A stretch of 32,000 nucleotides of DNA from Pseudoalteromonas phenolica (GTDB lineage: Bacteria > Pseudomonadota > Gammaproteobacteria > Enterobacterales > Alteromonadaceae). The notes under the pieces are model-generated. The model did not search any database. It saw nothing but the letters and a program-made list of their open reading frames with translations, and was not told the origin of the DNA. The DNA lies in NCBI RefSeq assembly GCF_001444405.1, contig NZ_CP013187.1:787716-819715 (forward strand), written 5' to 3'. Every line of letters starts with the position of its first letter. Within the stretch, counting starts at the first letter, position 1. A program made the translations under genes and the position numbers. Below, piece after piece: positions 2,367 to 26,623 of the stretch.

Positions 2367-2563
2367 AGGTGTCGTCCTTTGAAATTTTTCAGTTTTGAAT
2401 ATTTAGTTTACGCCTTTGGAATAAGTTAATCACTCAAATATAATGGCGTTTTGTAAAGTGATGTAACAATCCCACTTCAGCGTTTAAAAGTCTCTTATCA
2501 AACAATTATAAAACCAGTTTAAAAAATTATTATTAAAATTTATCCTATATAAACAATAGCTTG

Positions 2564-3664
2564 TTAGTCGTTCACCCCAGAAATATCTCCACGTCTTACA
2601 GGGTAGCCCAAGTGCATCCAGCCGAAAATACCTTCCCACAGTACTGCTGTGCGAGTGTAACCCCTAGCGCGAAGGCGATTGATGGTGTGATCTGCTGCGG
2701 CGCGAGGGCAAGAGCAATAGGCGACTATTTGAACGTCTTTGGGAATACCTGCAACGGTTTCATCTAAATCAGCATAATAGGGAAAGGGAATAGCGCCTTC
2801 TATGTGTGCTGTTTGCCAGACTGAGGTTACGCGCGTATCTAGCAATACCATACGTTTTTTTGCATTGAGTGCTTCATTGAGATCTTTTGAAAGTACATAC
2901 ATGCCATCTTTTAAATCAAAGTTAGGGTCTTCTCCGGCTTTGTTAATTATATAATCTTTAGGCTCTGGCAGTGCTCTAAGGACTGGTTTTTCTTCAACTA
3001 GCCCCATTGATTTACTGCGTAAAAATGCGGTGATGTTGTTAATGTCAGCGGGTGATAGTTTATTTTTGAATGCTTGCATAGGGGTGCCTTGTCGACCCTC
3101 CTGAATGGCATAGCGAATAAACTCGTCGGTATTATGGGCAAGGGCAGACTGATTCATCAGAGCTGGTGCCGTAATACCTTCACCTTGTTTACCATGACAA
3201 CTTGCACACTCTTTTTGGTAAACAGTCTCACCACGTTTTATATCGCCCTGTACCGGATTGGTTGAAAACTTAAGTCTGTCGTAACCTGCTTGCTCAAAAA
3301 GCCAATAAGTTAAATCCCAGGTTTCAGCAAGTGTCATAGGGCCACCTACCTCATCTAGGTAACCACCCATCGCGGTGCCTTCTCGGCCATATTGCATGGG
3401 CCTCAAAATTTGATGGGCTACGCCTGACTCCATCAGGCTTTTACTGCGAAGCGATGGGGCGTGATCGTTTTTATGACCTTCACGGTTTTCACCATGACAC
3501 AGCGCGCAGTATTTTTGATAGTTATTGGCTGCAACGCGAGCTTGCTCTGTCGTGAGCTTACGCGGTGGTGCTCGCCGCTCTCTTTCTTGTGAATAAGCAA
3601 CACTTGTATGAAAAAGCAAGATGACCAAACTGCTTGTCAGCAGCCCGAAAAATAGTTTAGACAT
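2564..3664 (-). CDS. Exported diheme c-type cytochrome fused to a C-terminal rhodanese-like (sulfurtransferase) domain
   Basis: The N-terminus is a hydrophobic signal or anchor (SKLFFGLLTSSLVILLF). There are two CxxCH heme motifs (CALCHG, CASCHG), each followed by a candidate Met ligand (GTAMGG, GTPMQAF). The C-terminal roughly 110 aa look like rhodanese (LLDTR...AHIEGAI...VAYCSCPRAAADH...GY..V..L.GG..GW). The track start at 3670 is TTG. The ATG two codons in (3664) is the likelier start. Confidence 0.8.
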   Translation of the reverse strand: MSKLFFGLLTSSLVILLFHTSVAYSQERERRAPPRKLTTEQARVAANNYQKYCALCHGENREGHKNDHAPSLRSKSLMESGVAHQILRPMQYGREGTAMGGYLDEVGGPMTLAETWDLTYWLFEQAGYDRLKFSTNPVQGDIKRGETVYQKECASCHGKQGEGITAPALMNQSALAHNTDEFIRYAIQEGRQGTPMQAFKNKLSPADINNITAFLRSKSMGLVEEKPVLRALPEPKDYIINKAGEDPNFDLKDGMYVLSKDLNEALNAKKRMVLLDTRVTSVWQTAHIEGAIPFPYYADLDETVAGIPKDVQIVAYCSCPRAAADHTINRLRARGYTRTAVLWEGIFGWMHLGYPVRRGDISGVND

Positions 3665-3767
3665 AACCAACCCTGGAAATAATGACGGTTAAATGAGCAT
3701 AAAGGGTGGTGATGTTGTTTTCTAGCGAAATACAAATCTGGTAACAATTTAAGTGAAAGGGTTTGAC

Positions 3768-3798
3768 CTAGCTCTTCCCCCAAAAGGGGGGGAGCTAG
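3768..3798 (-). terminator. Imperfect GC hairpin just downstream of the mscS stop
   Basis: ctagctcttccccc aaaa gggggggagctag forms a stem of CTAGCTC/GAGCTAG plus a C-run/G-run pairing. It lies 10 nt from the mscS stop. There is no clear U-tract on the minus strand, so support is only moderate. Confidence 0.4.
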
Positions 3799-3807
3799 CA
3801 AGAGAAA

Positions 3808-4638
3808 TTAGCTGCTCTCATTAACGAGAATAACTTTTCTGTGTGGGAAAGGTATTTCTATATCTGCCTCATCAAGTGCTTTTTTGATCTGTTCAGGTAC
3901 AGAGTATAGAAGATCAAAATAATGCTCTCCTTGACAGAAAGGTCTCACTAAGAAATCAACAGAGCTGTTGTTGAGTGATTCGACTTCAACAAAAGGCGCG
4001 GGGTCTTGTAAAACAAATTGGTGTTCAGAAAGTACTTTAAGAATGACAGCTTTGGCTTTATCTATATTTTCGCTGTAAGCGATACCAAACCGCATATCAA
4101 CCCCTCTAATTGTATAATGTGAGTGGTTGATAATTTTGTTCCCCCAAATATGGCTATTCGGTATAACAATTTGCTGATTATCGAAAGTTTGCATGATTGT
4201 GGTGAACATATCTATTTCAGTTACTTTGCCAAACTGCCCAGTTGTATCAATAAAATCTCCGACTTTGTAAGGCCTAAATATAAGCAGCATTACCCCTGCA
4301 GCTAAATTAGAGAGCGTCCCTTGTAAAGCAAGACCTACGGCTAAGCCTGCCGCCCCCAGTAATGCAATAATAGAAGCGGTCTGCACGCCAAATCGATTCA
4401 AGACAGCGATAGCAACAAAAGCAAGTATTGTGTAACGAACCACACTGCCAAAAAACTTAAATAAAGTGTCATCCAGTTGATCATATTTATTAGCAACAGC
4501 GGTGACTGCTTTATAGGCTTTGCCAGCTATCCATATACCGACCAATAAGATGCCAAGCGCGAGTAACAAATTTGTTGCCCAATCTAAAGCGGTTGGTAAG
4601 TATTGGTTTATATCTAGCTTTTCAATAAAACTATTCAT
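3808..4638 (-). CDS. mscS: Small-conductance mechanosensitive channel MscS
   Basis: The protein is colinear with E. coli MscS along its whole length, for example GVQTASIIALLGAAGLAVGLALQGTLSNLAAGVMLLIFRPYKVGDFI versus the E. coli TM3 region. I prefer the ATG at 4638 (MNSFIEKLD), which has GAGGA 8 nt upstream, over the track start at 4653. Confidence 0.9.
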   Translation of the reverse strand: MNSFIEKLDINQYLPTALDWATNLLLALGILLVGIWIAGKAYKAVTAVANKYDQLDDTLFKFFGSVVRYTILAFVAIAVLNRFGVQTASIIALLGAAGLAVGLALQGTLSNLAAGVMLLIFRPYKVGDFIDTTGQFGKVTEIDMFTTIMQTFDNQQIVIPNSHIWGNKIINHSHYTIRGVDMRFGIAYSENIDKAKAVILKVLSEHQFVLQDPAPFVEVESLNNSSVDFLVRPFCQGEHYFDLLYSVPEQIKKALDEADIEIPFPHRKVILVNESS

Positions 4639-4775
4639 GAAGGCGATCCTCATTGTTAATATATAGTTAAATTAGGCTAGAATCTCTACCTTATCAAGGT
4701 GGCAAGTTTCAGGTTGTTTTATAAAATTGTGTCTATAATTACTTTCTACGATAACCTTCAGAAAGTGAAAATAAA

Positions 4776-5015
4776 GTGAGATTAAACAGCGTTTTATTAA
4801 TTCTAATTTTGAGTAGTTTGGTTGCATGCTCTCAGGCTGATTCTGTGCCAGAGAGTGAATGCGATAAAGTTGTCGCCCATGCTAAATCGGTCTTAAAAGA
4901 AAATGCACCGAGTAAATCCGATATGTTGAAGCAATGTAAGGCTGCATCAGATGAAGCCAGAGGATGTGTTATGGCTGCGGATAAACCAATGAAATTACTT
5001 AAGTGTGACTTTTAA
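4776..5015 (+). CDS. Small secreted lipoprotein of unknown function
   Basis: GTG start. The signal peptide ends in the lipobox LVAC. The mature 60-aa part has 4 further Cys. A strong terminator follows. Confidence 0.6.
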   Translation: MRLNSVLLILILSSLVACSQADSVPESECDKVVAHAKSVLKENAPSKSDMLKQCKAASDEARGCVMAADKPMKLLKCDF

Positions 5016-5052
5016 TTTGAAGCATATTTGTGCTTGAAATAACTGCCCAGAA

Positions 5053-5088
5053 CCACCTAGCAAGTTGTCTCACTAGGTGGTTTTTTCT
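5053..5088 (+). terminator. Rho-independent terminator
   Basis: The stem is CCACCTAG (5053-5060) / CTAGGTGG (5073-5080) with a 12-nt loop, followed by TTTTTTC. Confidence 0.8.
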
Positions 5089-5146
5089 TTATGGCGTGTT
5101 GAAGACTTTTATTTCACAAACTCATAGCCAACAAGATAAATAAGCT

Positions 5147-5533
5147 CTAATGATAAGCCTCTGAGCGCTCTATCACTTCAATTTCATAACCATCAGGATC
5201 GGCAATAAAAAAGAATTTAGCAACAAGCTGATCGTCATTATAAAAAGACTTAACAGGACGAGGCTGATAACCTAACTTTACCGCTTTCTCATGCAGCGCT
5301 TCTATATTTTGCGCGCTAAACGCCAGATGACCATAACCATCACCTAGAATGTATGGCTTGGTTTTGTCATGATTAACGGTAAGCTCTAGTTCAAAATCGC
5401 TTTCATTATTACCCAAATAATGCAGGTCAAAGCCGTCAAATTTTAAGGTACGCTTTATCTCTAAGTTGAGTATATCTTGGTAAAATTGCGTCGACTTTTT
5501 TACATCCAAAACTCGGATCATACTGTGGATCAT
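5147..5533 (-). CDS. VOC-superfamily protein, glyoxalase I (lactoylglutathione lyase)-like
   Basis: MIHSMIRVLDVKKSTQFYQDILNLE...GYGHLAF...FIADPDGYEIEVIE parallels E. coli GloA (MLRVGDL..S..FY...LGM...AYGHIAL...FVEDPDGYKIELIE). The track start at 5590 is TTG. The ATG at 5533 gives the canonical length. No clear RBS is visible. Confidence 0.75.
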   Translation of the reverse strand: MIHSMIRVLDVKKSTQFYQDILNLEIKRTLKFDGFDLHYLGNNESDFELELTVNHDKTKPYILGDGYGHLAFSAQNIEALHEKAVKLGYQPRPVKSFYNDDQLVAKFFFIADPDGYEIEVIERSEAYH

Positions 5534-5922
5534 TTTTGCCACGTTTAAAATACCTATCTGTTGTGTGAACTCTACTCTTCTGTGCCGCAAGGTTTATTTG
5601 AAACAACGAAATGCTCAGTGTGCATTCAAAAAGGTGTCACTAAAAATCAGGTTTGGCAGTGATTCGAGCGTATAGTGAATGATGAAGACCGAGCGGCTGC
5701 CGAATTTATTTCAACTTTGTATCAAACGGTGATTGAACACCATTATAGTGTGCAAAGTACTGCATCAATCTTAAGAGCTACTTGTTTAATTGAGGCGTGG
5801 AATAATAAATAAAGCTGCGCGACATTGGGTAGTAACCAAATACTACATACAAATTAAATTTATTTGTGGGTAATGTTCTTTTGATGTTTAGTTAAGGGCC
5901 ACTTCAATCACGTCGGTATTGA

Positions 5923-6369
5923 ACTTTATCAATCATTCATCAGCCTCGGGAGCCATCGGGATCAGTATTGCAAGTTGCTAAATCATATCCGTGGCGACCA
6001 AGATCCCAGTCACTGTCTGAGTTTAACCAAGCTATGACTTATTTGAGTCAGCAAAATAATGTCACTACGTTTACCATGAGTGAATTTGGTCGAATCTTAA
6101 CGTCCTATGGTAATGGTACCGATCACGGTTGGGCAGGAAATCATATTGTCATGGGCGGCGCGGTGAACTGTGGTAATTTGTATGGCAAATTGTTGACTCA
6201 GCACCTTAATGGGCCCAGAGATACACGTGGTGGTCGACTTATTCCCGAAGTTGCCAATGAGCAGTATTTCGCAACCTTAGCAAGGTGGTTTGGCGTGCCT
6301 GATTCTGAGTTGGTTGATATTTTTCCAAACTTAGCGAACTTTAATCAGTACACACTCGGGTTTATCTAA
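5923..6369 (+). pseudogene. C-terminal remnant (about 140 aa) of a DUF1501-family (sulfatase-like, normally 400+ aa, Tat-exported) gene
   Basis: LSEFNQAM..VTTFTMSEFGRILTSYGNGTDHGWAGNHIVMGGAVNCGNLYG...GGRLIPEVANEQYFATLARWFGV...FPNLANFNQYTLGFI matches the conserved C-terminal third of DUF1501 proteins (SEFGRT..N..GTDHGW...GGAV.GG..YG...R.IPT...DQY.ATLA.WFG...FPNL..F). The in-frame upstream sequence hits a stop at 5920-5922. There is no ATG and no signal peptide, and the N-terminal two thirds are missing. Confidence 0.6.
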
Positions 6370-6389
6370 TTTTTTTTATCGCTAAATTT

Positions 6390-6424
6390 AAAAGCCACAG
6401 TCGAGATGAGTGTGGCTTTTTTGT
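6390..6424. terminator. Bidirectional rho-independent terminator between convergent genes
   Basis: AAAAGCCACA (6390-6399) pairs with TGTGGCTTTT (6411-6420). An A-run precedes the hairpin and a T-run follows it. Confidence 0.75.
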
Positions 6425-6428
6425 TGGG

Positions 6429-7523
6429 TTAAAGTTTGAAATCAGGTATGTACTGAGCAGCGATTTTGTCTGCGAATAGTATTGGGTTTGCTCCAATTAA
6501 ATTTGTTAAAACAACAACAGCAACATCATCTTCTGGGTATATAACCATACTTACAGCATTACCACCACTTGAACTGACAGCAGGGTGATTTTCTCTTTCA
6601 ATGATTTGCCAGCCCATAGCATAGCCTGTTTCAATAGGGCCTATTGAGCGAGTTTTGCCATCAGCGAGGGTTACAGGTGTCCAAAGCGCGCTTAGGTTTT
6701 GAATCAACTTCTTAGATTTTAGGCTGATTAGATAACTCGCAAGTTCCTCTGCATTACTACTCATGCCCGCAGCAGTTTGAAGCATATCTTCGTATTCAGC
6801 ATGAAAAACGTGATGCTGATTATTATAGAAATATTGCGGGACAAGTTGAGCGTTTGTTTTTACTGTGCTGTCGAATGCAGCACTGGCTGTTTTTGTCATC
6901 CCAGCTTTGGCAAGTTGCCCTGTAATAATAAAGTTTTGAAACCCTTGAGGCTTATATTTATCAATAATTTGACCAAGCAGCATATAACCTGTTTGGTTAT
7001 AGTTAAATTGTGTATTCTCTTTAAATCGCATGGGCAAAGTTTTCGCTTTTTGCCAAGATGCTTGTAAATCATTCAGCACAATTAAATCGAGCAAATGGCC
7101 TGTAAGTACCATAGGTAAACCAGATGTATGTGCAAGCAGATGCTTAATCTTTATCGGTTTCCAATGCTCAGGCAATCCAGATAGGTGCTGTCCTGCAGAG
7201 TCGTCAAGTTGTAGCATTCCTGCTTCAACAAGTTGCATGATTGCGACGCCCGTAAATGCTTTTGTCATCGAGTTAATTTGAAATAAATTTGCATCGGTTA
7301 CAGCACTTTTTGTTTCAACATCAGTAATACCATAACTGTTTTTAAAGACGATTTTGTCACCTTTAATTACAGCAACTTGTGCACCTAGAATTTTTTTCTC
7401 CTGCATCACTGTTTGCATATAACGGTCAACTGAGTGAGCACTTGCCACAAGTGGCATCGAAAGCAAAGACAAGCTAATTACAAGTAATGATGAGGTATAA
7501 AAGAGTGTTTTAAACAGGCGCAT
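6429..7523 (-). CDS. Secreted beta-lactamase-fold serine hydrolase (class C beta-lactamase / DD-peptidase / esterase family)
   Basis: The signal peptide ends in PLVASA-HS. An SxxK active-site motif is present (INSMTKAF), and the general AmpC/EstB-like layout runs through HLLAHTSGLP. An AAGGA RBS precedes the ATG at 7523. Confidence 0.8.
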   Translation of the reverse strand: MRLFKTLFYTSSLLVISLSLLSMPLVASAHSVDRYMQTVMQEKKILGAQVAVIKGDKIVFKNSYGITDVETKSAVTDANLFQINSMTKAFTGVAIMQLVEAGMLQLDDSAGQHLSGLPEHWKPIKIKHLLAHTSGLPMVLTGHLLDLIVLNDLQASWQKAKTLPMRFKENTQFNYNQTGYMLLGQIIDKYKPQGFQNFIITGQLAKAGMTKTASAAFDSTVKTNAQLVPQYFYNNQHHVFHAEYEDMLQTAAGMSSNAEELASYLISLKSKKLIQNLSALWTPVTLADGKTRSIGPIETGYAMGWQIIERENHPAVSSSGGNAVSMVIYPEDDVAVVVLTNLIGANPILFADKIAAQYIPDFKL

Positions 7524-7657
7524 AATATTCCTTTGTTATTATTTTCGCGCACAAAGTAACTGTTTTACAGCAAGTTATAAACATTGATTTGTAAACAATT
7601 GTGTTGAAACTATGAAAAGTTATTTACAATGAAGCAAACATAGTAAGAGATAATTTT

Positions 7658-8506
7658 ATGGGGTATTTAGCCTTTGTAACCTGTTTATGGGCGTTTTCTT
7701 TTAGTTTAATTGGCGTGTATTTGGCAGGGCAAGTTGATGCTTGGTTTAGCGCTTTTAGCCGAGTGGCGCTCGCAACTTGCGTGTTTATCCCTTTTTTAAT
7801 TCGCTCACGTATTCCTAAAGATCTCATTCTTAAATTAATGGCGATAGGGGGTGTGCAACTCGGGTTAATGTACGGGTTTTACTATCACTCGTTTTTGTTT
7901 TTGAGTGTGCCGGAGGTGTTGCTGTTTACTGTGATGACGCCGGTGTATATCACCTTACTCAATGATGTGTTAGATAGGCGGTTTAACGGTAAATATCTAC
8001 TGGTTGCGGTGATAGCTGTAATAGGTGCGGTTGCCATTCGTTATGAAAATTTTGATGGTGAGTTCTTATTTGGTTTGTTGCTGGTGCAAGGCGCTAACCT
8101 TTGTTTCGCAACAGGGCAAGTGACGTATAAGCGTTTAATGCAAGACTGTGAGCTTGATCACAAAACCGTGTTTGGTTGGTTTTTTGTCGGTGCATTAGTC
8201 GTGTCTTTGCTGTTCTTTTTAATGTTTGGCAATACAGACAAGCTACCAACGACTAGCACCCAGTGGGGCATATTAATTTATCTTGGTTTGGTGGCCTCGG
8301 GTTTTGGTTATTTTGCGTGGAATAAAGGCGCAACCTTAGTAGATGTAGGCGCACTTGCTGTGATGAATAATGTACTGATTCCTGCGGGTATACTGGTTAA
8401 TTTGGTTATTTGGAACCGAGATGCTGATTTAATCAGGCTTACTGTTGGGGGCGGCATTATCCTTCTTGCACTTTGGGTTAACCAAAAACTTGCTACAGGT
8501 CGCTAA
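7658..8506 (+). CDS. EamA/DMT-superfamily permease (10-TM drug/metabolite exporter type)
   Basis: The 282-aa protein is almost entirely hydrophobic and has a two-fold internal EamA-like repeat pattern (...GQVTYKRL..., ...GFGYFAWNKG...). Confidence 0.75.
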   Translation: MGYLAFVTCLWAFSFSLIGVYLAGQVDAWFSAFSRVALATCVFIPFLIRSRIPKDLILKLMAIGGVQLGLMYGFYYHSFLFLSVPEVLLFTVMTPVYITLLNDVLDRRFNGKYLLVAVIAVIGAVAIRYENFDGEFLFGLLLVQGANLCFATGQVTYKRLMQDCELDHKTVFGWFFVGALVVSLLFFLMFGNTDKLPTTSTQWGILIYLGLVASGFGYFAWNKGATLVDVGALAVMNNVLIPAGILVNLVIWNRDADLIRLTVGGGIILLALWVNQKLATGR

Positions 8507-9633
8507 GCGACCTGTGCTTTGTTAATACCGCTAAATTGCTGACGATATTGGTTGGGCGTAAACCCCGTAAATTGCTTGAACGCGCGAGTAAATGGCCCGA
8601 CAGACGCAAATCCGCTTTCTAGGCCAATCACTAACACCGGCCAATGCGATTTATCACACTCAGAGAGTAGCTGTTTGGCATGCTCGACTCTGAGTTGATT
8701 TATGTACTGGTTAAAGTTTCGAGCACCGAGCCCCTCTTTGAATAGTCGGCTGACCTTATATTCAGGTAAGTCGAGTTGCTTAGCTAAATCACCTACTTTC
8801 AGATTTGCTTGTAGATATAGTTTTTGGTCTATCAATAATTGTTGAATGGTGTCTTTCAACTCAATATCTTGTGACTCTTCGGTTTGCATTACCAAAGAGC
8901 GAGTTTCCATTTGTGTTTCATTTAACTTGGGTTTGAAAGCACTTACTTGCGTTGTGTTTATTGATTTTTTTGGATTGTGACTAGAGCTAGATTTAAAGCG
9001 CCAAAACATCAGTATTTGTGTAACAAGCAGCATAAAAATAGTGATACAGGCGATGATGGCTTCTTTAATATACGGCGTGTCTACAAAGTAGCCTTTGGCG
9101 ACCTTGCTAATGAATACTGCAGAGATGATGGCACACAAATAGAACACACGCTGTTTCTGCTGGGTCTTAGAGGATTGATTAAACCCTCTAAATGCTTCCC
9201 ATATAGATAAAACAATAATTGCAGAAGACAGCAAAATAGTGATTTCTGTGAGTGCATATTTAGCAAAACTGAAGCTACTTGATTCTATGTGCCACAGTTC
9301 TGTGACAAACAAATATCCTTTGCTCATCATCACCAAAACAGCAATGCCAATGGCTAGTGCAATATGTTGTATAGAGATGGCATTATTGCCTCTAAAATAA
9401 CTTCGCACAAACAACCAATAGCAGTTACAGGTCGCACAAGCTCCTAGCCCGACTAGGTATTGGTAAGCTCCCAGACTGTCAGCAGATAATTTTTGTATTA
9501 CGCCCATGGCAACCGAGCCACAAAATACCGCAAATAAAATATGCGTCGTATGCTTGTTTTTTACCCACAATTGAGCGAGTAAGCAGGTTAATGCCACGAA
9601 AAGCTGAATGGAATAAATGTTTGATAAGGTCAT
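8503..9633 (-). CDS. Membrane-anchored AraC/XylS-family transcriptional regulator
   Basis: The N-terminal roughly 210 aa form about 6-7 hydrophobic helices. A Ser/Gln-rich linker follows. The C-terminus is a typical AraC double HTH (VGDLAKQLDLPEYKVSRLFKE...YINQLRVEHAKQLL...IGLESGFASVGPFTRAFKQFTGFTPNQYR). A GGAG RBS lies upstream of the ATG at 9633. Confidence 0.85.
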   Translation of the reverse strand: MTLSNIYSIQLFVALTCLLAQLWVKNKHTTHILFAVFCGSVAMGVIQKLSADSLGAYQYLVGLGACATCNCYWLFVRSYFRGNNAISIQHIALAIGIAVLVMMSKGYLFVTELWHIESSSFSFAKYALTEITILLSSAIIVLSIWEAFRGFNQSSKTQQKQRVFYLCAIISAVFISKVAKGYFVDTPYIKEAIIACITIFMLLVTQILMFWRFKSSSSHNPKKSINTTQVSAFKPKLNETQMETRSLVMQTEESQDIELKDTIQQLLIDQKLYLQANLKVGDLAKQLDLPEYKVSRLFKEGLGARNFNQYINQLRVEHAKQLLSECDKSHWPVLVIGLESGFASVGPFTRAFKQFTGFTPNQYRQQFSGINKAQVA

Positions 9634-9908
9634 CAGGGGCGCTCCAAAGTAACACCGCAGAGTTTATCTAATCGTTTGTTCTCTCTCAATTGTGTGTTTG
9701 TAAGAAAGCGTGTCGTATTTTATTAGGTAATGAGGTGAGTAAAAAAGTTAGCTTTAATTTCATGTTGTTACATAGCTTTTAGATTCTGTTTATCAAAATT
9801 TAAAAAGCGCAAACTGCTAAAATCATAGGCCGATTTTAAAATTCGGTGCGATCCTATTTCACACCAATGTCAAGCTGTTTACATCAACATTAGAGTAAGG
9901 AGCTTGTT

Positions 9909-10757
9909 ATGGAACAGCTAACCGTTAATCAAAAAAATATCTGGGGTATGTCAGCCGATTCTGCACTTAAAAAGGCGGTGACTAGTTGGGTCAGTATTGT
10001 ATTAGTCGGGCAATGGGCGTTTGCCGTTTATATTCTCAGTTTGTATGCCATCCCTTTATTAATAGGGGCCGTGCATCAGGCAGATGAAATCTCTCCTGCA
10101 AGAGGGTTTGATACCAGTGCGGGTTTTGATTCCATCATGTTTTTTAGCCATATTTTGCCTGCGGCGATTATGGCAAGCAGTGGTTTGCTACAAATTATTC
10201 CAAAAATACGCAAAACCTACCCTAAGTTTCACCGTTGGAATGGTCGAGTATTTTTTGCTCTAGGCCTGTCTGGTGCTGTTACGGGACTGTATTTAACTTG
10301 GGGGGCAGGCATTCGCTTTAGTGACATAGGTGCGTTAGGTGTCACACTAAATGGCGTACTTATATTAGTCGCAATATTCTTTGCTTGGAAAACCGCAGTT
10401 AAAAAGCAATTTGTTCAGCATCAGCGCTGGGCGGTGCATGCCTTCATTTTAGTGAATGGCGTATGGACGTTCCGCTTGTTTTTAATGGGCTGGTATTTAG
10501 TTAACCAAGGCCAAAACGGCAATAACAATAACCTAGATGGCCCTATGGATCTAACAATATCTTTTGCTTGTTACTTGTTGCCTATGTTGTTTGCTGAACT
10601 TATCTTTTGGGCTAAGCGCAGTAAAACCGAAAACGTAAAATGGCTAGCTGCGATGACAACTTCTATTGCAGCCGTGATCACCTTAATTGGTGTAATCGCA
10701 GCAGCTATGATGATGTGGGGACCAAGGCTGTCTATGGTATTTTCAACAATTTTTTAA
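9909..10757 (+). CDS. Polytopic inner-membrane protein of unknown function (possibly DUF2306-like)
   Basis: A strong TAAGGAG RBS sits 6 nt before the ATG at 9909. There are 6-7 predicted TM segments. The KFHRWNGRVFF motif resembles what I recall of DUF2306, but that family call is tentative. Confidence 0.7.
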   Translation: MEQLTVNQKNIWGMSADSALKKAVTSWVSIVLVGQWAFAVYILSLYAIPLLIGAVHQADEISPARGFDTSAGFDSIMFFSHILPAAIMASSGLLQIIPKIRKTYPKFHRWNGRVFFALGLSGAVTGLYLTWGAGIRFSDIGALGVTLNGVLILVAIFFAWKTAVKKQFVQHQRWAVHAFILVNGVWTFRLFLMGWYLVNQGQNGNNNNLDGPMDLTISFACYLLPMLFAELIFWAKRSKTENVKWLAAMTTSIAAVITLIGVIAAAMMMWGPRLSMVFSTIF

Positions 10758-10789
10758 AAATTTATTTTTAAATACTGTAACTTGATAAG

Positions 10790-10825
10790 TTAAATCTATT
10801 AATTTGTATTGATTAATAGATTTAA
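10790..10825. terminator. AT-rich bidirectional hairpin between convergent genes
   Basis: TTAAATCTATTAAT (10790-10803) and ATTAATAGATTTAA (10812-10825) form a 14-bp perfect inverted repeat with an 8-nt loop. Confidence 0.55.
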
Positions 10826-10838
10826 TTTATTGTTATCG

Positions 10839-11681
10839 CTATCCTCGAATAAAAGGAAAAAGCTGCAAGGCATCTTCAATGATCTGCTTCTTATGGTTCT
10901 TCTCTAAGAAAATGGCATAAACGTCGCGGTAATAAGTGGGTGCTTCAGGCACTAAATAGAGCTTTTGTTTTCTGAGCTCTGTAAAGCACATTTGATTAGG
11001 CAAATAGGCTGCACCACCGGCTTCAAGTATAAAATTCATAGCAATACGCGGTTGGTTCATATGATGGCGGGTATTCAGTGCATCACCAAAGTCTTTTAGT
11101 ACTTGGTTATTAATGGATTCGCCGTAGTCTACCATGACCCAATTTTCTAATTCTTCAATGCTGTCTGCAGCCTGAGTGGATACTAGTTTAAGGGGAATTG
11201 TAGCCACTTTTTTGGCTTCGATGTCATCAATAAAAGGCGGCTCAAATAAGAAAGCAATATCAACCATGCGATTTTGCACTTGTTTGCGTAACTCAAGCGG
11301 TGAATAGGTTTGCGTGAATAGGTTAACGTCGTCTAGATTACGATGAATTTTTTGTAGCCAGTCATGTAAGACCATATCCCAAATCGACATCATGGCACCC
11401 ACAAACAATTGAGTTGAACTGGCATCGCCAACCCCGACATCTTGCTTGACCTTTTGCCACATAGTAAGAATTTCGTTGGCGTGCTTCACCAGTTTATGGC
11501 CTTCGGCAGTGAGCTTTAAGCGTTTGTTTGCCCTATCAAAAAGCAACACACCAAGATCTTCTTCTAATAGTTTAATGCGTGCACTGACTGCAGCCTGAGT
11601 CACAAATAAATTTTCAGCTGCCACTCTAAAGTGCAATGTTCGGCTCACTTCTAAAAATGTCATTAGCAGTTCAGTGCGCAT
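10839..11681 (-). CDS. LysR-family transcriptional regulator
   Basis: The N-terminal wHTH is MRTELLMTFLEVSRTLHFRVAAENLFVTQAAVSARIKLLEEDLGVLLFDR. The gene is divergent from rimK. A GAGAG RBS is present. Confidence 0.9.
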   Translation of the reverse strand: MRTELLMTFLEVSRTLHFRVAAENLFVTQAAVSARIKLLEEDLGVLLFDRANKRLKLTAEGHKLVKHANEILTMWQKVKQDVGVGDASSTQLFVGAMMSIWDMVLHDWLQKIHRNLDDVNLFTQTYSPLELRKQVQNRMVDIAFLFEPPFIDDIEAKKVATIPLKLVSTQAADSIEELENWVMVDYGESINNQVLKDFGDALNTRHHMNQPRIAMNFILEAGGAAYLPNQMCFTELRKQKLYLVPEAPTYYRDVYAIFLEKNHKKQIIEDALQLFPFIRG

Positions 11682-11701
11682 GGTTTCTCTCGGTTTTATT
11701 G

Positions 11702-11715
11702 ATAAAAATTTTTAT
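11702..11715. promoter_or_regulatory. Perfect 14-bp AT palindrome in the lysR/rimK divergent control region (candidate LysR-type site)
   Basis: ATAAAAATTTTTAT is its own reverse complement. It lies 21 bp upstream of the LysR start and about 100 bp upstream of rimK. Its function is inferred only from position. Confidence 0.3.
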
Positions 11716-11813
11716 TTAATAAGGTTATTTTATTTAGTTTTTCTTTTCAAATTGTTTGTCCTACATTTGCTCCCGTATTCACACACTGACATTTAACTTT
11801 TTTGGAAAAGAAC

Positions 11814-12719
11814 ATGAAAATTGCCATTCTTTCTTGTGGACCTGAACTTTACTCTACTAAGCGTTTATTAGAGTCGGGACTTGCTCGTGGGCATGAGGTC
11901 GACGTTATCGACACATTACATTGCTACATGGATATCACCAGTAGCCGCCCAACAGTGCGTTACCACGGTGAAGAATTACCAAAATACGATGCGATTATTC
12001 CACGTATTGGTTCATCAATTACGTTTTACGGCACAGCAGTTGCGCGCCAGTTTGAAATGATGGGTACATTTAACGTGAACGAGTCGGTGGCAATTAGCCG
12101 TTCGAGAGACAAGCTACGTTCACTACAATTGTTATCGCGTCGTGGTATTGGCTTGCCGCGTACTGGCTTTGCAAGTAAGCCTGACAACATTAAAGACCTA
12201 ATCAAAAATGTGGGTGGCGCGCCACTGGTGATTAAATTACTTGAAGGTACGCAAGGCATTGGTGTTGTGTTAGCGGATACGTCAAAGGCAGCAGAAAGCA
12301 TCATCGAAGCTTTTATGGGTCTAAAAGCCAATATTTTAGTTCAGGAATATATTAAAGAAGCGGGCGGTGCAGACATTCGTTGTTTAGTGGTTGGCGGTAA
12401 AGTCGTTGCGGCAATGAAGCGTCAGGCAGCTGAAGGTGAGTTTCGTTCAAACTTACATCGTGGTGGCTGCGCAGAAATTGTAAAGCTCAGCAAAGAAGAG
12501 CGTGAAACCGCAGTACGTGCCGCGAAAGTGATGGGTTTGAATTTCTGTGGCGTTGACTTACTTCGCTCGCACAATGGCCCTATGGTGATGGAGGTAAATT
12601 CATCGCCAGGTCTTGAAGGCATCGAAAAAGCAACGGGTTTAGATGTAGCAGCTAAACTCTATGAGTTTATTGAGAAAAAGAATGACGTGTCACCGCCAAG
12701 AAAATTAGCGGTGGGGTGA
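11814..12719 (+). CDS. rimK: Ribosomal protein S6 L-glutamate ligase RimK (ATP-grasp)
   Basis: From MKIAILS the protein is colinear with E. coli RimK across the full length ([97 protein letters not shown]). The track start at 11802 is TTG. The ATG at 11814 matches the E. coli N-terminus. Confidence 0.93.
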
Positions 12720-12732
12720 GGAGTCTAAATTA

Positions 12733-13767
12733 ATGGCATTACCTGAAGACATTGTAATTGGTGAGCACCGTATTAAAGCGGGGCAGAGTGCAAAAGTCAT
12801 GCTGCCAGTGGCCAAGTTGTATACCGATGCGGAAGTTTCTCTTCCTGTTTTTATCAGTCGCTCTAAAAAAGCGGGGCCAACGGTATTAATTTGCGCAGCG
12901 GTACATGGTGATGAACTGAACGGTATTGAAATTATTCATCGCTTAATTCGCGACAAAAAGCTTAAGCCATCGTGCGGTACTGTGATTGCAGTACCCATGG
13001 TAAACGTGTACGGCGTAATAAACCAAAGCCGCTATTTACCAGATAGACGCGATTTAAATCGCAGCTTTCCGGGATCTGCAAAAGGCTCATTAGCATCGAG
13101 ATTGGCGAATATTTTCTTAAATCAATGTGTGTTGCATTGTGACTATGGCATCGACTTGCACACTGGTGCGATTCATCGCTCTAATTTGCCACAGATCAGA
13201 GCAAATTTAGACGAGGCAGATTTAAGTGGGTTAGCCAATGCGTTTGGTGCGCCTGTGGTGATCAATACCGCAAATCCGAAAGGCTCTTTGCGAGAAGCTG
13301 CGGCAAAGTCAGGCACCAAAATCATGGTATATGAAGCGGGTGAGGCGCTGCGCACCGATGAGTTTTCTGTGCATATTGGCTACCGCGGGGTGCTAAATGT
13401 GCTGCGGGCTTTAAACATGTTGCCAAAATCGCGTAAGAAGAAAAGTAGCACCTTACCGTTTATTGCACATAGTTCTGATTGGATCAGAGCGACAGCCAGC
13501 GGCTTTGTATCGCATAAGCTTGAACTGGGTGAGCAGGTTGAGAAAGGCACGGTTCTGGCCGATGTGGTTGACCCCTTTGGTGAAGTGTTAGCGCAAGTAA
13601 AAGCGCCTCGTAAGGGCATCATCATCGGTAAGCAAAATATTCCTTTAGTACAGGAGGGAGAGGCTATGTACCACATAGGCTATTTTAGCGCTGATGAAGC
13701 AGAAATTTCTCAACATATCGACAATGAAGAAAATGCCATTGTTGATGGTGAAAGCGAGGCGCGCTAG
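12733..13767 (+). CDS. Succinylglutamate desuccinylase/aspartoacylase (AstE/AspA) family zinc hydrolase, M14-carboxypeptidase-like
   Basis: The zinc/catalytic signature of the family is present: AAVHGDELNG (HxxE), GIDLHTGA (second His) and VYEAGEAL (catalytic Glu). A GAGGAG RBS is present. The gene starts 13 nt after the rimK stop. Confidence 0.8.
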   Translation: MALPEDIVIGEHRIKAGQSAKVMLPVAKLYTDAEVSLPVFISRSKKAGPTVLICAAVHGDELNGIEIIHRLIRDKKLKPSCGTVIAVPMVNVYGVINQSRYLPDRRDLNRSFPGSAKGSLASRLANIFLNQCVLHCDYGIDLHTGAIHRSNLPQIRANLDEADLSGLANAFGAPVVINTANPKGSLREAAAKSGTKIMVYEAGEALRTDEFSVHIGYRGVLNVLRALNMLPKSRKKKSSTLPFIAHSSDWIRATASGFVSHKLELGEQVEKGTVLADVVDPFGEVLAQVKAPRKGIIIGKQNIPLVQEGEAMYHIGYFSADEAEISQHIDNEENAIVDGESEAR

Positions 13768-13786
13768 TGCGCCTTTGGAGTTAAGT

Positions 13787-14926
13787 ATGTTAACTGTTGA
13801 ACAAAATGCGAAGTTGCAAAGCTTAGATCTGGCGTTGCATGCCATGGTACAAGGAATAGATATACTTGATTCCGTTGCACCAATTAACTACCAAGAAGAA
13901 AGAGCAAGATTCTTTGCAGGTAATGCGACCGAGAACCCGAACTTCTTATATAAAGAAAATCAGTTCAATGTGTTTGCTAAAAAACGTGAACTCTATCAGT
14001 TGCCGGTGGAAACATTAGAGGATGATGATTTAACGCAGCTTTACAGCGAAGTCATAGAGTCTTATGCCGATAAGCTTGATCAGTTTCGCTCTGTAGGCAG
14101 CGAACAGTTTATGTATGACTCGCTGCGTTATTATGGTGAGCCATCAGATAAAGACATTCGCAACGCTCAGTTTGTGCTGCATGTGCCTGATTCTCTCTCG
14201 AAATCATCAGGGAACTTGCTCAATGCAGATGCGATTGTTGCGCAAATGCATGAGTTTGCGCAGACCCATAGTTATCGCTATGAGTTAGTGGTTGATGGTT
14301 CGATGATCGCCAATGCTTTGGTATCTGGCACTAAGGTGAAGATTAATGCGGCGGCCAGTTTAGGCGAAAAAGAAGTTGCAGCCCTTGCACATCATGAATT
14401 AGGTGTACATTTAGTGACAACCCTGAATGCTCAGACTCAGCCTTTAAAGGTACTCTCTTTGGGGAGCCCAGTGAATACCACAAGCCAAGAAGGCATCGCG
14501 ATTTTATGCGAATTCTTATCGGGCAACTTAACGGTATCGCGTTTAAAAATATTGGCGTTGAGAGTATTGGCGGTGAAATCTATGCTGGATGAGCGCGACT
14601 TCAAACGTACTTACCAGATGTTACTTGAGCAATATAATGTCAGTGAACAGTTGGCGTTTACGATTACAGCACGTGTTTATCGCGGCGGCGGTTTTACCAA
14701 AGATTATTTATATCTAAAAGGTTTCCACCAAATTCTACACGCATATGAAACCCGTGATGACTTTGTAAATTTACTCAGCGGTAAAGTGTCGTTAGAGCAG
14801 TTAGATGTGGTGACGAGTTTAATCAATAAATCGATTTTAAAAGCGCCGAGTTACATTAGCCCAGCCATTGAAAAACCGCAAAAACTAGGCGAAATCGAAC
14901 GTTTCTTATCGCTATCGATTAAATAA
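13787..14926 (+). CDS. DUF1704 / QEGLA-motif protein. This is a putative HExxxH metallocarboxypeptidase of the family also named tyrosine/phenylalanine carboxypeptidase domain (MATCAP-like).
   Basis: It contains HHELGVH (HExxxH) followed about 35 aa later by SQEGIAILCE (the QEG[LI]A motif). I prefer the ATG at 13787, which has GGAG 6 nt upstream, over the track start at 13694, which would overlap the previous gene by 74 nt. Confidence 0.7.
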   Translation: MLTVEQNAKLQSLDLALHAMVQGIDILDSVAPINYQEERARFFAGNATENPNFLYKENQFNVFAKKRELYQLPVETLEDDDLTQLYSEVIESYADKLDQFRSVGSEQFMYDSLRYYGEPSDKDIRNAQFVLHVPDSLSKSSGNLLNADAIVAQMHEFAQTHSYRYELVVDGSMIANALVSGTKVKINAAASLGEKEVAALAHHELGVHLVTTLNAQTQPLKVLSLGSPVNTTSQEGIAILCEFLSGNLTVSRLKILALRVLAVKSMLDERDFKRTYQMLLEQYNVSEQLAFTITARVYRGGGFTKDYLYLKGFHQILHAYETRDDFVNLLSGKVSLEQLDVVTSLINKSILKAPSYISPAIEKPQKLGEIERFLSLSIK

Positions 14927-14949
14927 GTTACGAATTATAGCTAGACATT

Positions 14950-14980
14950 AAAAAGCGATGAATGTGGTCATCGCTTTTTA
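14950..14980 (+). terminator. Rho-independent terminator ending the rimK operon
   Basis: AAAAAGCGATGA / TCATCGCTTTTT has a 6-nt loop (ATGTGG) and a T-run. Confidence 0.8.
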
Positions 14981-15083
14981 AGTTGAGCCAATTATCAATA
15001 AAATTTTAAAACTGATTCAACTTATTAGCTCATTATCAGTTTAAATTAAATGTTCTAAGATGGAATCAGATAACCTTGGAGGC

Positions 15084-15866
15084 ATGATGAAAAAGATATT
15101 GGTGACTGGCGCAACGGGTGGGTTAGGGTTTGCGACTGCTGAGCATTTATTAGCCCTCGGGCATGTTGTACTTTTACATGGTAGGAGTGAGCAAAGTTTA
15201 GCAACTGCTGCTCAAGCATTATCTCAATATAGTGATCAGCTAGAAATATATGCTGCTGACTTGTCTGATTTAGCCCAAGTGAATAATTTTATCGAGCAAG
15301 TAAAAGAGAAGCACACTCAGTTAGATGCGATCATTAATAATGCCGGAGTGCTTAAAACCAATACACCGATATCTTCATCAGGTGTAGATAGCCGGTTTGT
15401 CGTTAACACCATTACACCTTATTTAATTACCCAAAAACTGTTGCCATTGTTGGACGGTGGCAGAGTGATTAACTTGTCTTCAGCAGCACAAAGTCCTGTT
15501 GATATTAGAGGGTTATCAGGTGAGCTTCAATATAGTGATGCTATGACTGCATATGCACAAAGCAAGTTGGCAATTACGGCTTGGACTTTATATATGGCTG
15601 AAGAAATAAAGCAGACGCAATTTATACCCGTAAACCCAGGGTCACTACTCGCAACGAGTATGGTTAAATCTGGGTTCGGCATTGAAGGTAAAGACATTCG
15701 AAAGTCAGTAAAGTTATTGGCTGATTTAGCGGTATCAAAAGATTTCGACGGAGAAAGTGGTCGGTACTTTGATAATGACGTAGGCGCTTTTGGAGCCCCT
15801 CATCCTGATGCTCAAAACACTAATTTTCAAGCTGAGCTAATTAAAAATCTAGCTCGATTTCACTAA
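15084..15866 (+). CDS. Short-chain dehydrogenase/reductase (classical SDR)
   Basis: It has the TGATGGLG cofactor motif, NNAG, and the catalytic YAQSK (YxxxK). GGAGG lies immediately upstream of the tandem ATGs at 15084 and 15087, so the exact start is uncertain by one codon. The track start at 15060 is less likely. Confidence 0.85.
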   Translation: MMKKILVTGATGGLGFATAEHLLALGHVVLLHGRSEQSLATAAQALSQYSDQLEIYAADLSDLAQVNNFIEQVKEKHTQLDAIINNAGVLKTNTPISSSGVDSRFVVNTITPYLITQKLLPLLDGGRVINLSSAAQSPVDIRGLSGELQYSDAMTAYAQSKLAITAWTLYMAEEIKQTQFIPVNPGSLLATSMVKSGFGIEGKDIRKSVKLLADLAVSKDFDGESGRYFDNDVGAFGAPHPDAQNTNFQAELIKNLARFH

Positions 15867-15897: not shown

Positions 15898-21531
<5,634 letters not shown>

Positions 21532-21554
21532 CTAGCTAGCCTTAAGGTTAAAGT

Positions 21555-22607
21555 TTAATTTTGCCGCTCAGTTTGGTTTTCATTTAGGCTCTGTTTTGAA
21601 GCCGCTATTGGCGCAAATGCCGTTGATTGTCGCTCGACTAATGTTGGCTGATAGCGATGCGAATGTGCTGTTTTATCTAACTGAGTGTGCTTATTAATGG
21701 CCAGCAGTGCTGCGTGTTTGGCGATGGCTTCGACAGGGTAGTGCAAGGTGGTGAGCTTAGGTCTGCTGTAATGAGCAAGGCAAATGTCATCAAAGCCAAT
21801 CACCGAAATATCGTCTGGCACTTTAAAGCCCGCTTCTTCTAACGCTGAAATTGCACCAATTGCCATGGCATCGTTGTAGGCGAAAAGTGCCGTAAATACT
21901 TGCTGGTTTTTGAGTAAAGTATTGGCTGCTAGCTCGCCACCGAGTTGATCTGGTGCGCCATAAACAACTTGATCTTCAGTTAATGTAAGTGCTTGCTTAT
22001 ATAAAGCCGAATTGAACCCTGATAGCCTGTGTTTGGGATCTTGAATTGGCAGCTCACTCATAATGCTCGCAAAACGGCTGTGGCCTAAGGCGAGTAGGTG
22101 CTCAGCGGCCAATTGGCCACCAAGTTCATCATCTAGGTAAATACAGTTCTCGGCTATTTCTGGAATATTTCGTGCCACCACGACCACGTTTGAATAGCGC
22201 TCTACGATATCGATTAATGCGCTGTCGGCTAAATGTGTACAGTACAAAATTATGCCATCACAGCGACGTTGTAATAATGAATCAATGGCTTGTTGTTCTG
22301 AGTCACTACTGTTTTGGGCGGTACACAGCAGTACTTGGCTTTGATGCTGACGGGCTATGCTATCGACGCCTTTTGCTAAGCAGGCAAAAAATGGATCGCT
22401 GATGTCGGGCACCACTAAGCCGAGTGTGGCTGTCTTTTGTGTGGAGAGTGCGCGTGCATTGACGTTTACCTGATAACCTAAGGATTTCATCACCATGAGT
22501 ACATGCTCGCGGGTTTTGTCTCTTACTTTGTCATCTTGGTTTATCACGCGAGACACGGTGGCAATAGATACCTTGGCTTCTCGGGCAACGTCTTTAATGG
22601 TGGCCAT
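21555..22607 (-). CDS. galR: LacI-family galactose repressor GalR
   Basis: MATIKDVAREAKVSIATVSRVIN...NARALS...GLVV.D.SDPFF is near-identical in pattern to the N-terminus of E. coli GalR and colinear after it. A GalR-type operator lies in the adjacent intergenic region. Confidence 0.88.
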   Translation of the reverse strand: MATIKDVAREAKVSIATVSRVINQDDKVRDKTREHVLMVMKSLGYQVNVNARALSTQKTATLGLVVPDISDPFFACLAKGVDSIARQHQSQVLLCTAQNSSDSEQQAIDSLLQRRCDGIILYCTHLADSALIDIVERYSNVVVVARNIPEIAENCIYLDDELGGQLAAEHLLALGHSRFASIMSELPIQDPKHRLSGFNSALYKQALTLTEDQVVYGAPDQLGGELAANTLLKNQQVFTALFAYNDAMAIGAISALEEAGFKVPDDISVIGFDDICLAHYSRPKLTTLHYPVEAIAKHAALLAINKHTQLDKTAHSHRYQPTLVERQSTAFAPIAASKQSLNENQTERQN

Positions 22608-22663
22608 GTTTTTTCGCTTAAAAAAGGCTTAATTCTGAGCGATGGTAGCAGAGTGATTTTTTT

Positions 22664-22677
22664 AAGTAAATTTACTT
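22664..22677. promoter_or_regulatory. Perfect 14-bp palindrome AAGTAAATTTACTT (candidate second operator, or a site for another factor)
   Basis: The sequence is self-complementary. It shares GTAAA/TTTAC arms with the operator 25 bp to its right but lacks the central CG. Confidence 0.35.
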
Positions 22678-22688
22678 GCTAAAAAAAA

Positions 22689-22702
22689 TGTAACCGTTTA
22701 CA
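22689..22702. promoter_or_regulatory. GalR/LacI-family operator overlapping the predicted galT promoter
   Basis: TGTAACCGTTTACA has 6 of 7 symmetric pairs and the central CG typical of LacI-family sites. It is flanked by AAAA/TTTT. It lies between a candidate -35 (TTGCTA, 22676-22681) and overlaps a candidate -10 (TACATT, 22699-22704), 35 bp upstream of the galT ATG. Confidence 0.6.
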
Positions 22703-22736
22703 TTTTTTGTATACATTATCCTTTTGTGATTTAAAC

Positions 22737-23771: not shown

Positions 23772-23773
23772 TA

Positions 23774-24919: not shown

Positions 24920-24963
24920 TCAATATAACCCTAGTAATTAGAAAAAGAATAACGAGGAACATC

Positions 24964-26547: not shown

Positions 26548-26562
26548 TCGTCATTTCTTTTT

Positions 26563-26610
26563 AAACAGCAGGTATGTCACTTTTAAGTGAAGTACCTGCT
26601 GTTTTCTTTA
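26563..26610 (+). terminator. Strong hairpin plus T-rich tail between sglT and galM
   Basis: AAACAGCAGGTA (26563-26574) pairs with TACCTGCTGTTT (26593-26604) to form a 12-bp perfect stem with an 18-nt loop, followed by TCTTTAT. Confidence 0.65.
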
Positions 26611-26623
26611 TACACGTTAACTC

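Follow-up and report, generated by a model that had tools for sequence, protein, structure and literature searches.

We analysed a 32,000-nt stretch of the Pseudoalteromonas phenolica genome (contig NZ_CP013187.1, positions 787,716 to 819,715; the window) that carries a gene for the ATP-grasp glutamate ligase RimK, followed on the same strand by genes for two zinc hydrolases (gene 2 and gene 3) and preceded by a divergent gene for a LysR-family regulator. The functional coupling of the ligase with the two hydrolases is well supported. Whether this four-gene block makes up a regulated module that adds and removes alpha-linked glutamate chains, with the tail of ribosomal protein S6 and released oligo-glutamate as its substrates, is a closer call, and we put the chances at about even. 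The original prediction, drawn from the DNA alone, had put the operon forward as a candidate bacterial writer/eraser system: the ligase/hydrolase pairing stands up well, but the concept itself had already been published as RimK/RimB. The features of the block are:

10839-11681, minus strand: lysR, a LysR-family regulator, divergent from rimK
11696-11722, no strand: candidate operator for LysR, within the 132 nt between lysR and rimK; palindrome ATAAAAATTTTTAT at 11702-11715
11814-12719, plus strand: rimK, ATG start, 301 aa
12733-13767, plus strand: gene 2, an AstE/AspA-family zinc amidohydrolase, 344 aa
13787-14926, plus strand: gene 3, a stand-alone MATCAP-like QEGLA/DUF1704 zinc metallopeptidase, 379 aa
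14948-14981, plus strand: intrinsic terminator hairpin closing the operon, fold -22.8 kcal/mol, z = -5.7

The enzymes and layout of the rimK operon

RimK is full length, as had been claimed: PF18030 covers residues 1-94 and PF08443 residues 98-286, with both profiles matched end to end. On the S6-Glu ligase equivalog model NF007764 it scores 454.7 bits (cutoff 331), far above its MptN or CofF scores, and the gene is 77-89% identical to the rimK genes of related loci. Enzymes of the RimK family add alpha-linked Glu to a C-terminal carboxylate, and the known products of RimK are the S6 tail and free poly-alpha-glutamate.

Gene 3 carries the HHELGVH (residues 202-208) and SQEGIA (233-238) motifs on which its original assignment to DUF1704 was based, and the profiles agree, both for PF08014 (E = 1e-100, 337.5 bits vs a cutoff of 27), which Pfam now names MATCAP, and for the QEGLA model TIGR02421 (394.5 vs 338.65). 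Residues H203, E204, H208, Q234, E235, G236 and A238 do not vary among 70 homologues, and a pairwise HMMER alignment sets HHELGVH and QEGIA against HEIGTH and EEGLA of human MATCAP. The structure model is confident (predicted local distance difference test (pLDDT) 93.1). Each of its five best PDB matches is a chain of human MATCAP (E = 1e-9 to 4e-9, template modelling (TM) score 0.61-0.71), so that the proposed MATCAP fold is supported at the level of a predicted structure; the next matches, ACE and oligoendopeptidase F, have E > 0.03. Within the eukaryotic MATCAP family, TMCP1/2 remove C-terminal Glu and shorten polyglutamate chains (PMC10499314).

The zinc signature predicted for gene 2 is present in all three parts (HGDE, 58-61; DLHTG, 141-145; YEAGE, 200-204) and is invariant in 70 homologues, in which H58, E61, N109, R110, H143 and E201 are unchanged and align with the motifs of DoeB. 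Membership of the AstE/AspA family was borne out by PF24827 (AstE_AspA_cat; E = 3e-40, 138.2 bits vs a cutoff of 25). The protein falls below the cutoffs of the AstE (25.4 vs 305.65), aspartoacylase (ASPA, 29.6 vs 180) and DoeB (101.8 vs 402.7) subfamilies, and therefore belongs to an uncharacterised one. A structure model of moderate quality (pLDDT 78) gave DoeB 6twm as the best Foldseek match (E = 1e-21, TM 0.75-0.79), with 3cdx, 3na6 and 2qj8 also matching and CphZ structures following the DoeB-type matches at TM ~0.65. The idea that gene 2 is a counterpart of the CCP-type M14 enzymes did not hold: there was no Peptidase_M14 match, and CCP5 (8v3o) came at rank 43 (E = 1.7e-6, TM 0.44). The operon had been said to contain one member of each of three enzyme classes that act on tubulin tails. 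The ATP-grasp ligase and MATCAP classes are represented, the latter by gene 3, but the CCP class is not, gene 2 being of the AstE/AspA branch. Separate folds and families do confirm that the two hydrolases are unrelated to each other.

Five arginines (R106, R149, R156, R187 and R207) are invariant in the gene 2 family but absent from DoeB, and at the position of R187 DoeB has an Asp. Also conserved in the family is an acidic helix at the C-terminus (residues 320-344). These features may reflect an acidic substrate, and R187 in particular hints at a substrate side chain that is acidic, not basic.

The spacing of the same-strand trio is as first described, 13 nt between rimK and gene 2 and 19 nt between gene 2 and gene 3, and lysR indeed lies on the minus strand, facing rimK. 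Each gene had been credited with its own Shine-Dalgarno sequence; this is so for gene 2 (GAGGAG) and gene 3 (GGAG), but rimK has only a weak purine-rich GGAAAAGAA. The strong shared terminator, placed by the original prediction at 14950-14980, was measured at 14948-14981 as a 14-bp perfect hairpin with a T-run. As-good folds were found in 0/200 shuffled sequences; a simple terminator scan of the region did not flag the hairpin. A longer gene 3 reading frame with a start at 13694, present in the list of open reading frames (ORFs), was rejected because homologues begin at the 379-aa start.

The LysR protein has HTH_1 and LysR_substrate domains, and its best NCBIfam match is HdfR (NF002946, 168.6 bits, below the cutoff of 240). 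A divergent lysR stands beside rimK also in P. luteoviolacea, in Vibrio and in many metagenomic loci. When seven lysR-rimK intergenic regions were aligned (including window 11696-11722, L082 4851-4990 and L085-L089), they shared a palindromic block with the consensus TAATCAATTTTTTTGATTAAAC, from which the window copy (ATAAAAATTTTTAT) has diverged, and a TATACACT-like element downstream of it. Going by this conservation, the block is probably the LysR operator and the TATACACT-like element the promoter.

From lysR to gene 3 (10843-14929) the block has ~94.5% DNA identity to two related Pseudoalteromonas genomes (L001 and L002), with proteins 98-100% identical. It is the sole segment common to the window and these genomes: the flanks differ, and the DNA similarity ends at 14929. 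Upstream, positions 1-10842 of the window are unrelated to the corresponding flanks of L001 and L002. Downstream, an SDR gene at 15060-15866 is missing from L001 (7142-7216), and L002 (7140-9161) has a different insert of ~2 kb at that point. Both edges of the block are insertion/deletion hot spots among the three genomes. Further downstream (15898-27580) the window holds an unrelated sugar cluster with a YgjK-like glucosidase, a lacZ-like GH2 gene, a LacI-family regulator, galT, galK and a sodium:solute symporter.

Gene neighbourhoods and the RimB slot

Neighbourhoods were compared using a metagenome scan seeded with gene 2 (80 loci) and a scan of species-representative genomes seeded with gene 3 (80 loci, 46-99% identity). 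All locus counts refer to the best 80 matches of these pattern-based scans and take no account of kinship. In the metagenomic loci, rimK is immediately upstream of the AstE-like gene in 61/66 assessable cases, with a median gap of ~ -1 nt (n = 69). A RimB-like gene follows the AstE-like gene immediately in 41/69 loci and lies elsewhere in the locus in 13/69 (total 54/69), and a MATCAP-like gene is present in 1/80. The conserved unit is thus rimK-AstE-like, usually then RimB-like, and among the marine gammaproteobacteria rimK is bound more closely to the AstE/AspA-like gene than to RimB. P. luteoviolacea and a Vibrio show the full arrangement, in which lysR is divergent from rimK, an AstE-like gene, a RimB-like gene (PF05618) and then a small MscS-like channel gene. 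Gene 2 homologues are also found apart from rimK: close homologues (56-60% identical) have no rimK nearby in L104, L106, L117 and L121 (gene at ~6001-7000 or 3370-4314), and in L107 (6001-7457) a RimB-like gene (PF05618) comes next after the AstE-like gene in a locus that has no rimK.

RimB is a retropepsin-like endopeptidase that removes the polyglutamate tails made by RimK (PMC7343187, PMC11957791). It requires at least 5 consecutive Glu residues, and besides removing polyglutamate from RpsF it stimulates the synthesis of free poly-alpha-glutamate by RimK; the discussion in that paper extends to effects on the glutamate pool and on osmolality (PMC11957791). In the P. phenolica operon, gene 3 occupies the position usually held by rimB, and tblastn with two RimB-like queries found no RimB-like sequence in the 32-kb window (best E = 0.24), whereas these queries do detect RimB-like genes in the 54/69 related loci. 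Across rimK-AstE-like loci, rimB is rarer where a QEGLA gene is present (3/9 vs 54/68; Fisher p = 0.008, p = 0.03 after lineage collapse). The two erasers can nevertheless co-exist, because in Psychromonas rimB and QEGLA stand in tandem, divergent from rimK-AstE-like. The genes 3' of rimB-less AstE-like genes included no alternative peptidase; there were channels, transporters and unrelated genes instead.

The original prediction had named conservation of the adjacency outside close relatives as a point on which it would stand or fall. Contiguous rimK/gene 2/gene 3 was found in 2/80 genome loci, both from Pseudoalteromonas, so on this point the claim failed. A looser linkage is more widespread: in 8/80 loci, and in five arrangements, no more than 6 kb separates the QEGLA gene from a rimK-AstE-like pair, where the chance expectation, by our own estimate, is well under 1%. 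The six looser-linked loci come from a Colwelliaceae, two Psychromonas, Thalassotalea marina, an Acidiferrobacterales metagenome-assembled genome and Glaciecola punicea. In the Colwelliaceae locus, a gene between the QEGLA gene and rimK (L036 7147-8640) encodes a Glu_synthase-domain protein (PF01645). In L075 (7475-8702), the stretch that separates the QEGLA gene from AstE-like-rimK holds an Alpha-E domain gene and fragments of a circularly permuted ATP-grasp gene (PF14403/PF04174); the fragments are probably frameshifted in this metagenome-assembled genome, and the genes would be a further amidoligase system beside a QEGLA gene.

These patterns bear on whether gene 3 is merely a passenger, i.e. 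a stand-alone QEGLA enzyme with an unrelated substrate that landed 3' of rimK-gene 2 after the loss of rimB. The trio is known from a single lineage, 72/80 stand-alone QEGLA loci lack a nearby RimK and have highly variable neighbours, none of them strongly conserved, and the region just past the terminator is an insertion/deletion hot spot among the three related genomes. On the other hand, linkage to rimK-AstE-like recurs in six other lineages and in varied orientations, including the Psychromonas rimB-QEGLA tandem, and across the family QEGLA is linked or fused to ATP-grasp ligases and to Glu-amidohydrolase-like domains. The 19-nt gap, the gene's own ribosome-binding site and its normal base composition (no foreign signature was seen in gene 3, at a GC fraction of 0.42 vs 0.427 for the window) also argue against a recent accidental insertion. 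We consider a passenger gene 3 improbable.

Ligase/MATCAP systems elsewhere and the salinity response

A full HMMER search with the gene 3 family returned 2,215 representatives at 50% identity (E <= 1e-3). An N-terminal extension of at least 150 aa is present in 106/150 of the best representatives, and 105 of these extensions are mutually homologous when compared on the extensions alone. Pfam calls the extension FGase (N-formylglutamate amidohydrolase, PF05013) in 3/10 scanned representatives, all of them long forms, so that ~70% (105/150) of the nearest gene 3 representatives are FGase-like::MATCAP-like fusions. The MATCAP-like domain of the fusion proteins (~660 aa) passes the TIGR02421 cutoff. 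A GshB-like ATP-grasp ligase was found beside the FGase/MATCAP long form in 5/7 look-ups, the exceptions being L167 and L169. The arrangements seen were:

L164-L166: a LysR gene diverging from the ligase gene, which overlaps the FGase::MATCAP gene behind it by 20 nt
L172: ligase followed by an FGase::MATCAP fusion
L170: ligase followed by two fusions; LysR and DUF413 close by
L171: separate genes for MATCAP, ligase and FGase, all three packed closely together
L168: FGase followed by the ligase; MATCAP comes 1.7 kb later

The partner ligase scores above the cutoff of the PRK12458 'glutathione synthetase' subfamily model and under those of both true GshB equivalogs, and it is only ~23% identical to RimK. 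A LysR gene adjoins GshB-like/FGase::MATCAP operons as it does rimK. The FGase and AstE/AspA families both belong to the zinc-exopeptidase-like superfamily, and their characterised members free L-glutamate from N-formyl- or N-succinyl-glutamate. A direct relationship of the FGase-like domain to the gene 2 family was not detected: hhalign was not significant with a single sequence (E = 0.14), although the HxxE and DLNR motifs lined up by eye, and gave nothing with a profile. The domain had no phmmer match in the PDB, and a literature search for formylglutamate amidohydrolase together with ATP-grasp found nothing. The design of a ligase plus two hydrolases thus recurs with non-orthologous parts, which suggests selection for the combination.

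Stand-alone QEGLA genes have further ligase neighbours. A RimK-family ligase of ~480 aa that joins RLAN (PF14401) to ATP-grasp is encoded near a stand-alone QEGLA in 9/80 loci (L009, 3516-7119; L019, L028, L037, L076, L014, L016, L022 and L041), and in 5 of those 9 a GNAT plus C39-like (DUF3335) protein is encoded between or beside the two. As a separate observation, a 2OG-Fe(II) oxygenase gene (PF13640) lies near QEGLA in 9/80 loci, including L005, L006, L017 and the Amphritea loci, and such a gene also adjoins the LysR gene of the GshB-like/FGase::MATCAP operon in L164-L166 (2157-2789).

Mammalian RIMKLA/B, which make N-acetyl-aspartyl-glutamate, offer a model for a different cycle, in which RimK would couple Glu to a metabolite, gene 2 would supply the corresponding N-acyl-amino-acid deacylase and proteins would play no part. 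Such a small-molecule cycle would fit the nearest characterised relatives of gene 2, which are the deacylases DoeB, AstE and ASPA, as well as the analogous trio, whose FGase partner is in the N-formylglutamate amidohydrolase family and whose ligase is glutathione-synthetase-like; RimK-family ligases that modify cofactors (MptN, CofF) also exist. However, the RimK encoded here is at the level of the S6-ligase equivalog (454.7 vs 331 bits), far above MptN/CofF. Moreover, the requirement of RimB, encoded by the usual third gene, for a run of at least 5 Glu speaks for polymer products, and the MATCAP fold is that of a peptidase acting on peptide tails. We regard the small-molecule cycle as improbable too, marginally more so than the passenger explanation.

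A response to salinity has been recorded for both rimK and a ligase/QEGLA operon. Photobacterium damselae RM-71 has been compared at 1% and 3% NaCl (PMC10308900, Table S2). At 1% NaCl its rimK was 52x up, among the top 20 genes, and a 'glutathione synthase' gene (RS17020) and the overlapping 660-aa QEGLA gene (RS17025) were 38x and 27.5x up (PMC10308900). The adjacent DUF413 gene was 9x up and a neighbouring HdfR-type LysR gene 2.3x down, while a 2OG-Fe(II) oxygenase gene at another locus was 11.8x up at low salt (PMC10308900). HdfR is also the best match, below its cutoff, of the LysR encoded in the window. The loci in RM-71 are NZ_CP070625.1:556448-560973 and NZ_CP070624.1:67296-68198. Unlinked rimK and QEGLA systems are thus co-regulated in a related marine bacterium, which points to a salinity signal.

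A small MscS-like channel gene (PF00924) accompanies rimK-AstE-like(-rimB) in 32/80 metagenomic loci and takes three positions: after rimB, between AstE-like and rimB, or divergent upstream of rimK (the metagenomic loci are L084-L163, with L084 3815-4447, L101 7244-7552 and L100 4842-4270 as examples; see also L081 7967-8572, L082 7485-8183 and L138 6235-8337). This linkage suggests a tie to glutamate or osmotic homeostasis. The window operon itself has no channel gene, and the sole MscS-like ORF in the window is generic and lies 7 kb off (3808-4653, minus strand). Genes for Mg2+ transporters (CorA/MgtE) also recur beside rimK-AstE-like (L036 11156-12139, L082 3032-3994, L138 8349-9296 and L059 1774-3120).

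The salinity and channel data also fit the main rival to a tail-modifying module. On this view it is the free glutamate pool that is managed: RimK makes osmotically inert poly-alpha-glutamate at falling salinity, the hydrolases re-mobilise it and S6 is incidental. The low-salinity induction in P. damselae (52x for rimK and 27-38x for the ligase/QEGLA operon), the MscS-like genes in three positions in 32/80 loci and the recurrent CorA/MgtE genes all agree with it. So do the stimulation of free poly-alpha-Glu synthesis by RimB, the glutamate-pool and osmolality effects discussed by the RimB authors, and the small substrates of AstE/AspA and FGase enzymes, for which CphZ is a precedent. Yet RimK scores well above the S6-ligase equivalog cutoff, the operon contains no channel gene (the one MscS-like ORF of the window is 7 kb off), and the MATCAP-family enzymes that have been studied act on protein tails. 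The salinity data, besides, come from another genus, and poly-Glu was not among the measurements. This rival is in our view unlikely; both the small-molecule cycle and a passenger gene 3 are less likely than it.

A proposed glutamate add-and-remove module and its relatives

The mechanism that we favour for the P. phenolica block is an add-and-remove cycle. RimK would add Glu residues to the S6 tail. Gene 3 would act as a carboxypeptidase, shortening these acidic chains from the C-terminus by one residue at a time, and in the P. phenolica lineage it would replace the endopeptidase RimB both in role and in gene position. Gene 2, less certainly, would cleave the amide bond before a C-terminal Glu and so finish short oligo-glutamates, or the last residues of a tail, to free glutamate, as CphZ does in cyanophycin breakdown. 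CphZ is an AstE/AspA-family dipeptidase whose gene is clustered with those for an ATP-grasp polymer synthetase and an endopeptidase (PMC9974463). The divergent LysR would set expression through the intergenic palindrome, plausibly sensing salinity or the glutamate pool. That rimK, gene 2 and gene 3 form a unit is an idea strengthened by the analogous trio, by the co-induction in P. damselae and by the deglutamylase activity of eukaryotic MATCAP/TMCP enzymes.

Several observations weigh against the add-and-remove module. The three genes are contiguous only within a small lineage, the P. phenolica group, and the 72/80 stand-alone QEGLA loci that have no RimK within 6 kb have no AstE-like gene within that distance either. 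Since a relationship between FGase and gene 2 is undetectable, the argument from the 'same trio' rests on enzyme class and not on orthology. To our knowledge, the characterised AstE/AspA members all act on small molecules (N-acyl amino acids and dipeptides), which makes a protein-tail role for gene 2 doubtful. The gene 2 model is also poor (pLDDT ~36) at residues 91-116, which include the conserved DRRDLNR motif. As to the substrate, rpsF was not found in the window or in any fetched locus. That rimB is missing from the genome as a whole is only weakly hinted at, by the lack of a P. phenolica entry among the top 120 RimB-like matches. Finally, the searchable literature yielded no experiment on any bacterial QEGLA protein, nor any enzymology for bacterial members of the gene 2 or gene 3 subfamilies.

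The closest described system is Pseudomonas RimABK, which has the same writer, RimK, and likewise pairs it with a co-transcribed hydrolase that undoes polyglutamylation. In contrast, the window has no RimB-like gene in its 32 kb, and none of the four block genes has the EAL domain of the phosphodiesterase RimA; in their place are two zinc hydrolases, AstE/AspA-like and MATCAP-like, and divergent LysR regulation. The tubulin tail cycle (TTL/TTLL, CCP and MATCAP/TMCP) likewise uses an ATP-grasp ligase on an acidic C-terminal tail, and gene 3 is truly homologous to MATCAP, in sequence and in fold alike, whereas the likeness for gene 2 is only loose. It differs in that RimK adds alpha-linked Glu to the main-chain C-terminus and not as side-chain branches, and in that the window system is without tubulin, its presumed target being S6 or a free polymer.

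The cyanophycin cluster (CphA1, cyanophycinase and CphZ) also combines an ATP-grasp synthetase, an endo-acting peptidase and an M14-annotated AstE/AspA-family hydrolase of the end product. However, its polymer is beta-Asp-Arg as opposed to alpha-Glu, and gene 2 is nearer to DoeB (TM 0.75-0.79) than to CphZ (~0.65). With the PRK12458/FGase/QEGLA trio the block shares the combination of a ligase, an enzyme of the Glu-amidohydrolase class and a MATCAP-like enzyme, often with a divergent LysR; in the window, too, the QEGLA peptidase is co-oriented with an ATP-grasp ligase and faces a divergent LysR. The ligase and first hydrolase of that trio are non-orthologous to RimK and gene 2, and its hydrolases are usually fused where those of the window are separate. 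Gene 2 has the same fold as DoeB, AstE and aspartoacylase, together with their HxxE...H zinc site, catalytic Glu and N-R carboxylate clamp, but it is locked to rimK and not to genes of ectoine, arginine or N-acetylaspartate catabolism.

Within the searchable literature, the tight rimK-AstE-like pairing, the MATCAP-like enzyme in the RimB slot and the recurrent ligase/FGase/MATCAP trio appear to be new. The RimK/RimB papers whose text was searched make no mention of a desuccinylase, aspartoacylase or carboxypeptidase partner. Searches found no literature linking RimK with MATCAP, DUF1704 or succinylglutamate desuccinylase, and for RimK with aspartoacylase, AstE, deacylase or M14 they gave chance co-occurrences only. 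For the DUF1704/QEGLA family itself the matches were mostly Plasmodium gene identifiers, apart from the P. damselae study. The AstE/AspA-like gene is a core partner of RimK that published work on the ligase, to judge from the papers searched, has missed, and the salinity response and MscS-like channels connect ribosome glutamylation to glutamate and osmotic homeostasis.

A wider and more tentative proposal, which we hold to be possible rather than probable, is that bacterial MATCAP-family peptidases, alone or fused to FGase, work as partners devoted to C-terminus-extending ATP-grasp ligases (RimK, RLAN-RimK-like and PRK12458 GshB-like). Together these would make up a widespread prokaryotic add-and-trim system, induced at low salinity, for acidic C-terminal tails or oligo-glutamates, one that is ancestral to the eukaryotic pairing of tubulin ligase and MATCAP. 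MATCAP/TMCP are recent additions to the erasers of the tubulin code, and they have at least 2,215 clusters of bacterial relatives (50% identity). The position of gene 3 behind RimK, in the RimB slot, offers a candidate substrate, alpha-linked C-terminal glutamate chains, for this whole bacterial family. If the pairing of bacterial MATCAP and ATP-grasp enzymes is true, the Pseudoalteromonas operon would be its Rosetta stone, since it links the family to a ligase with a known product.

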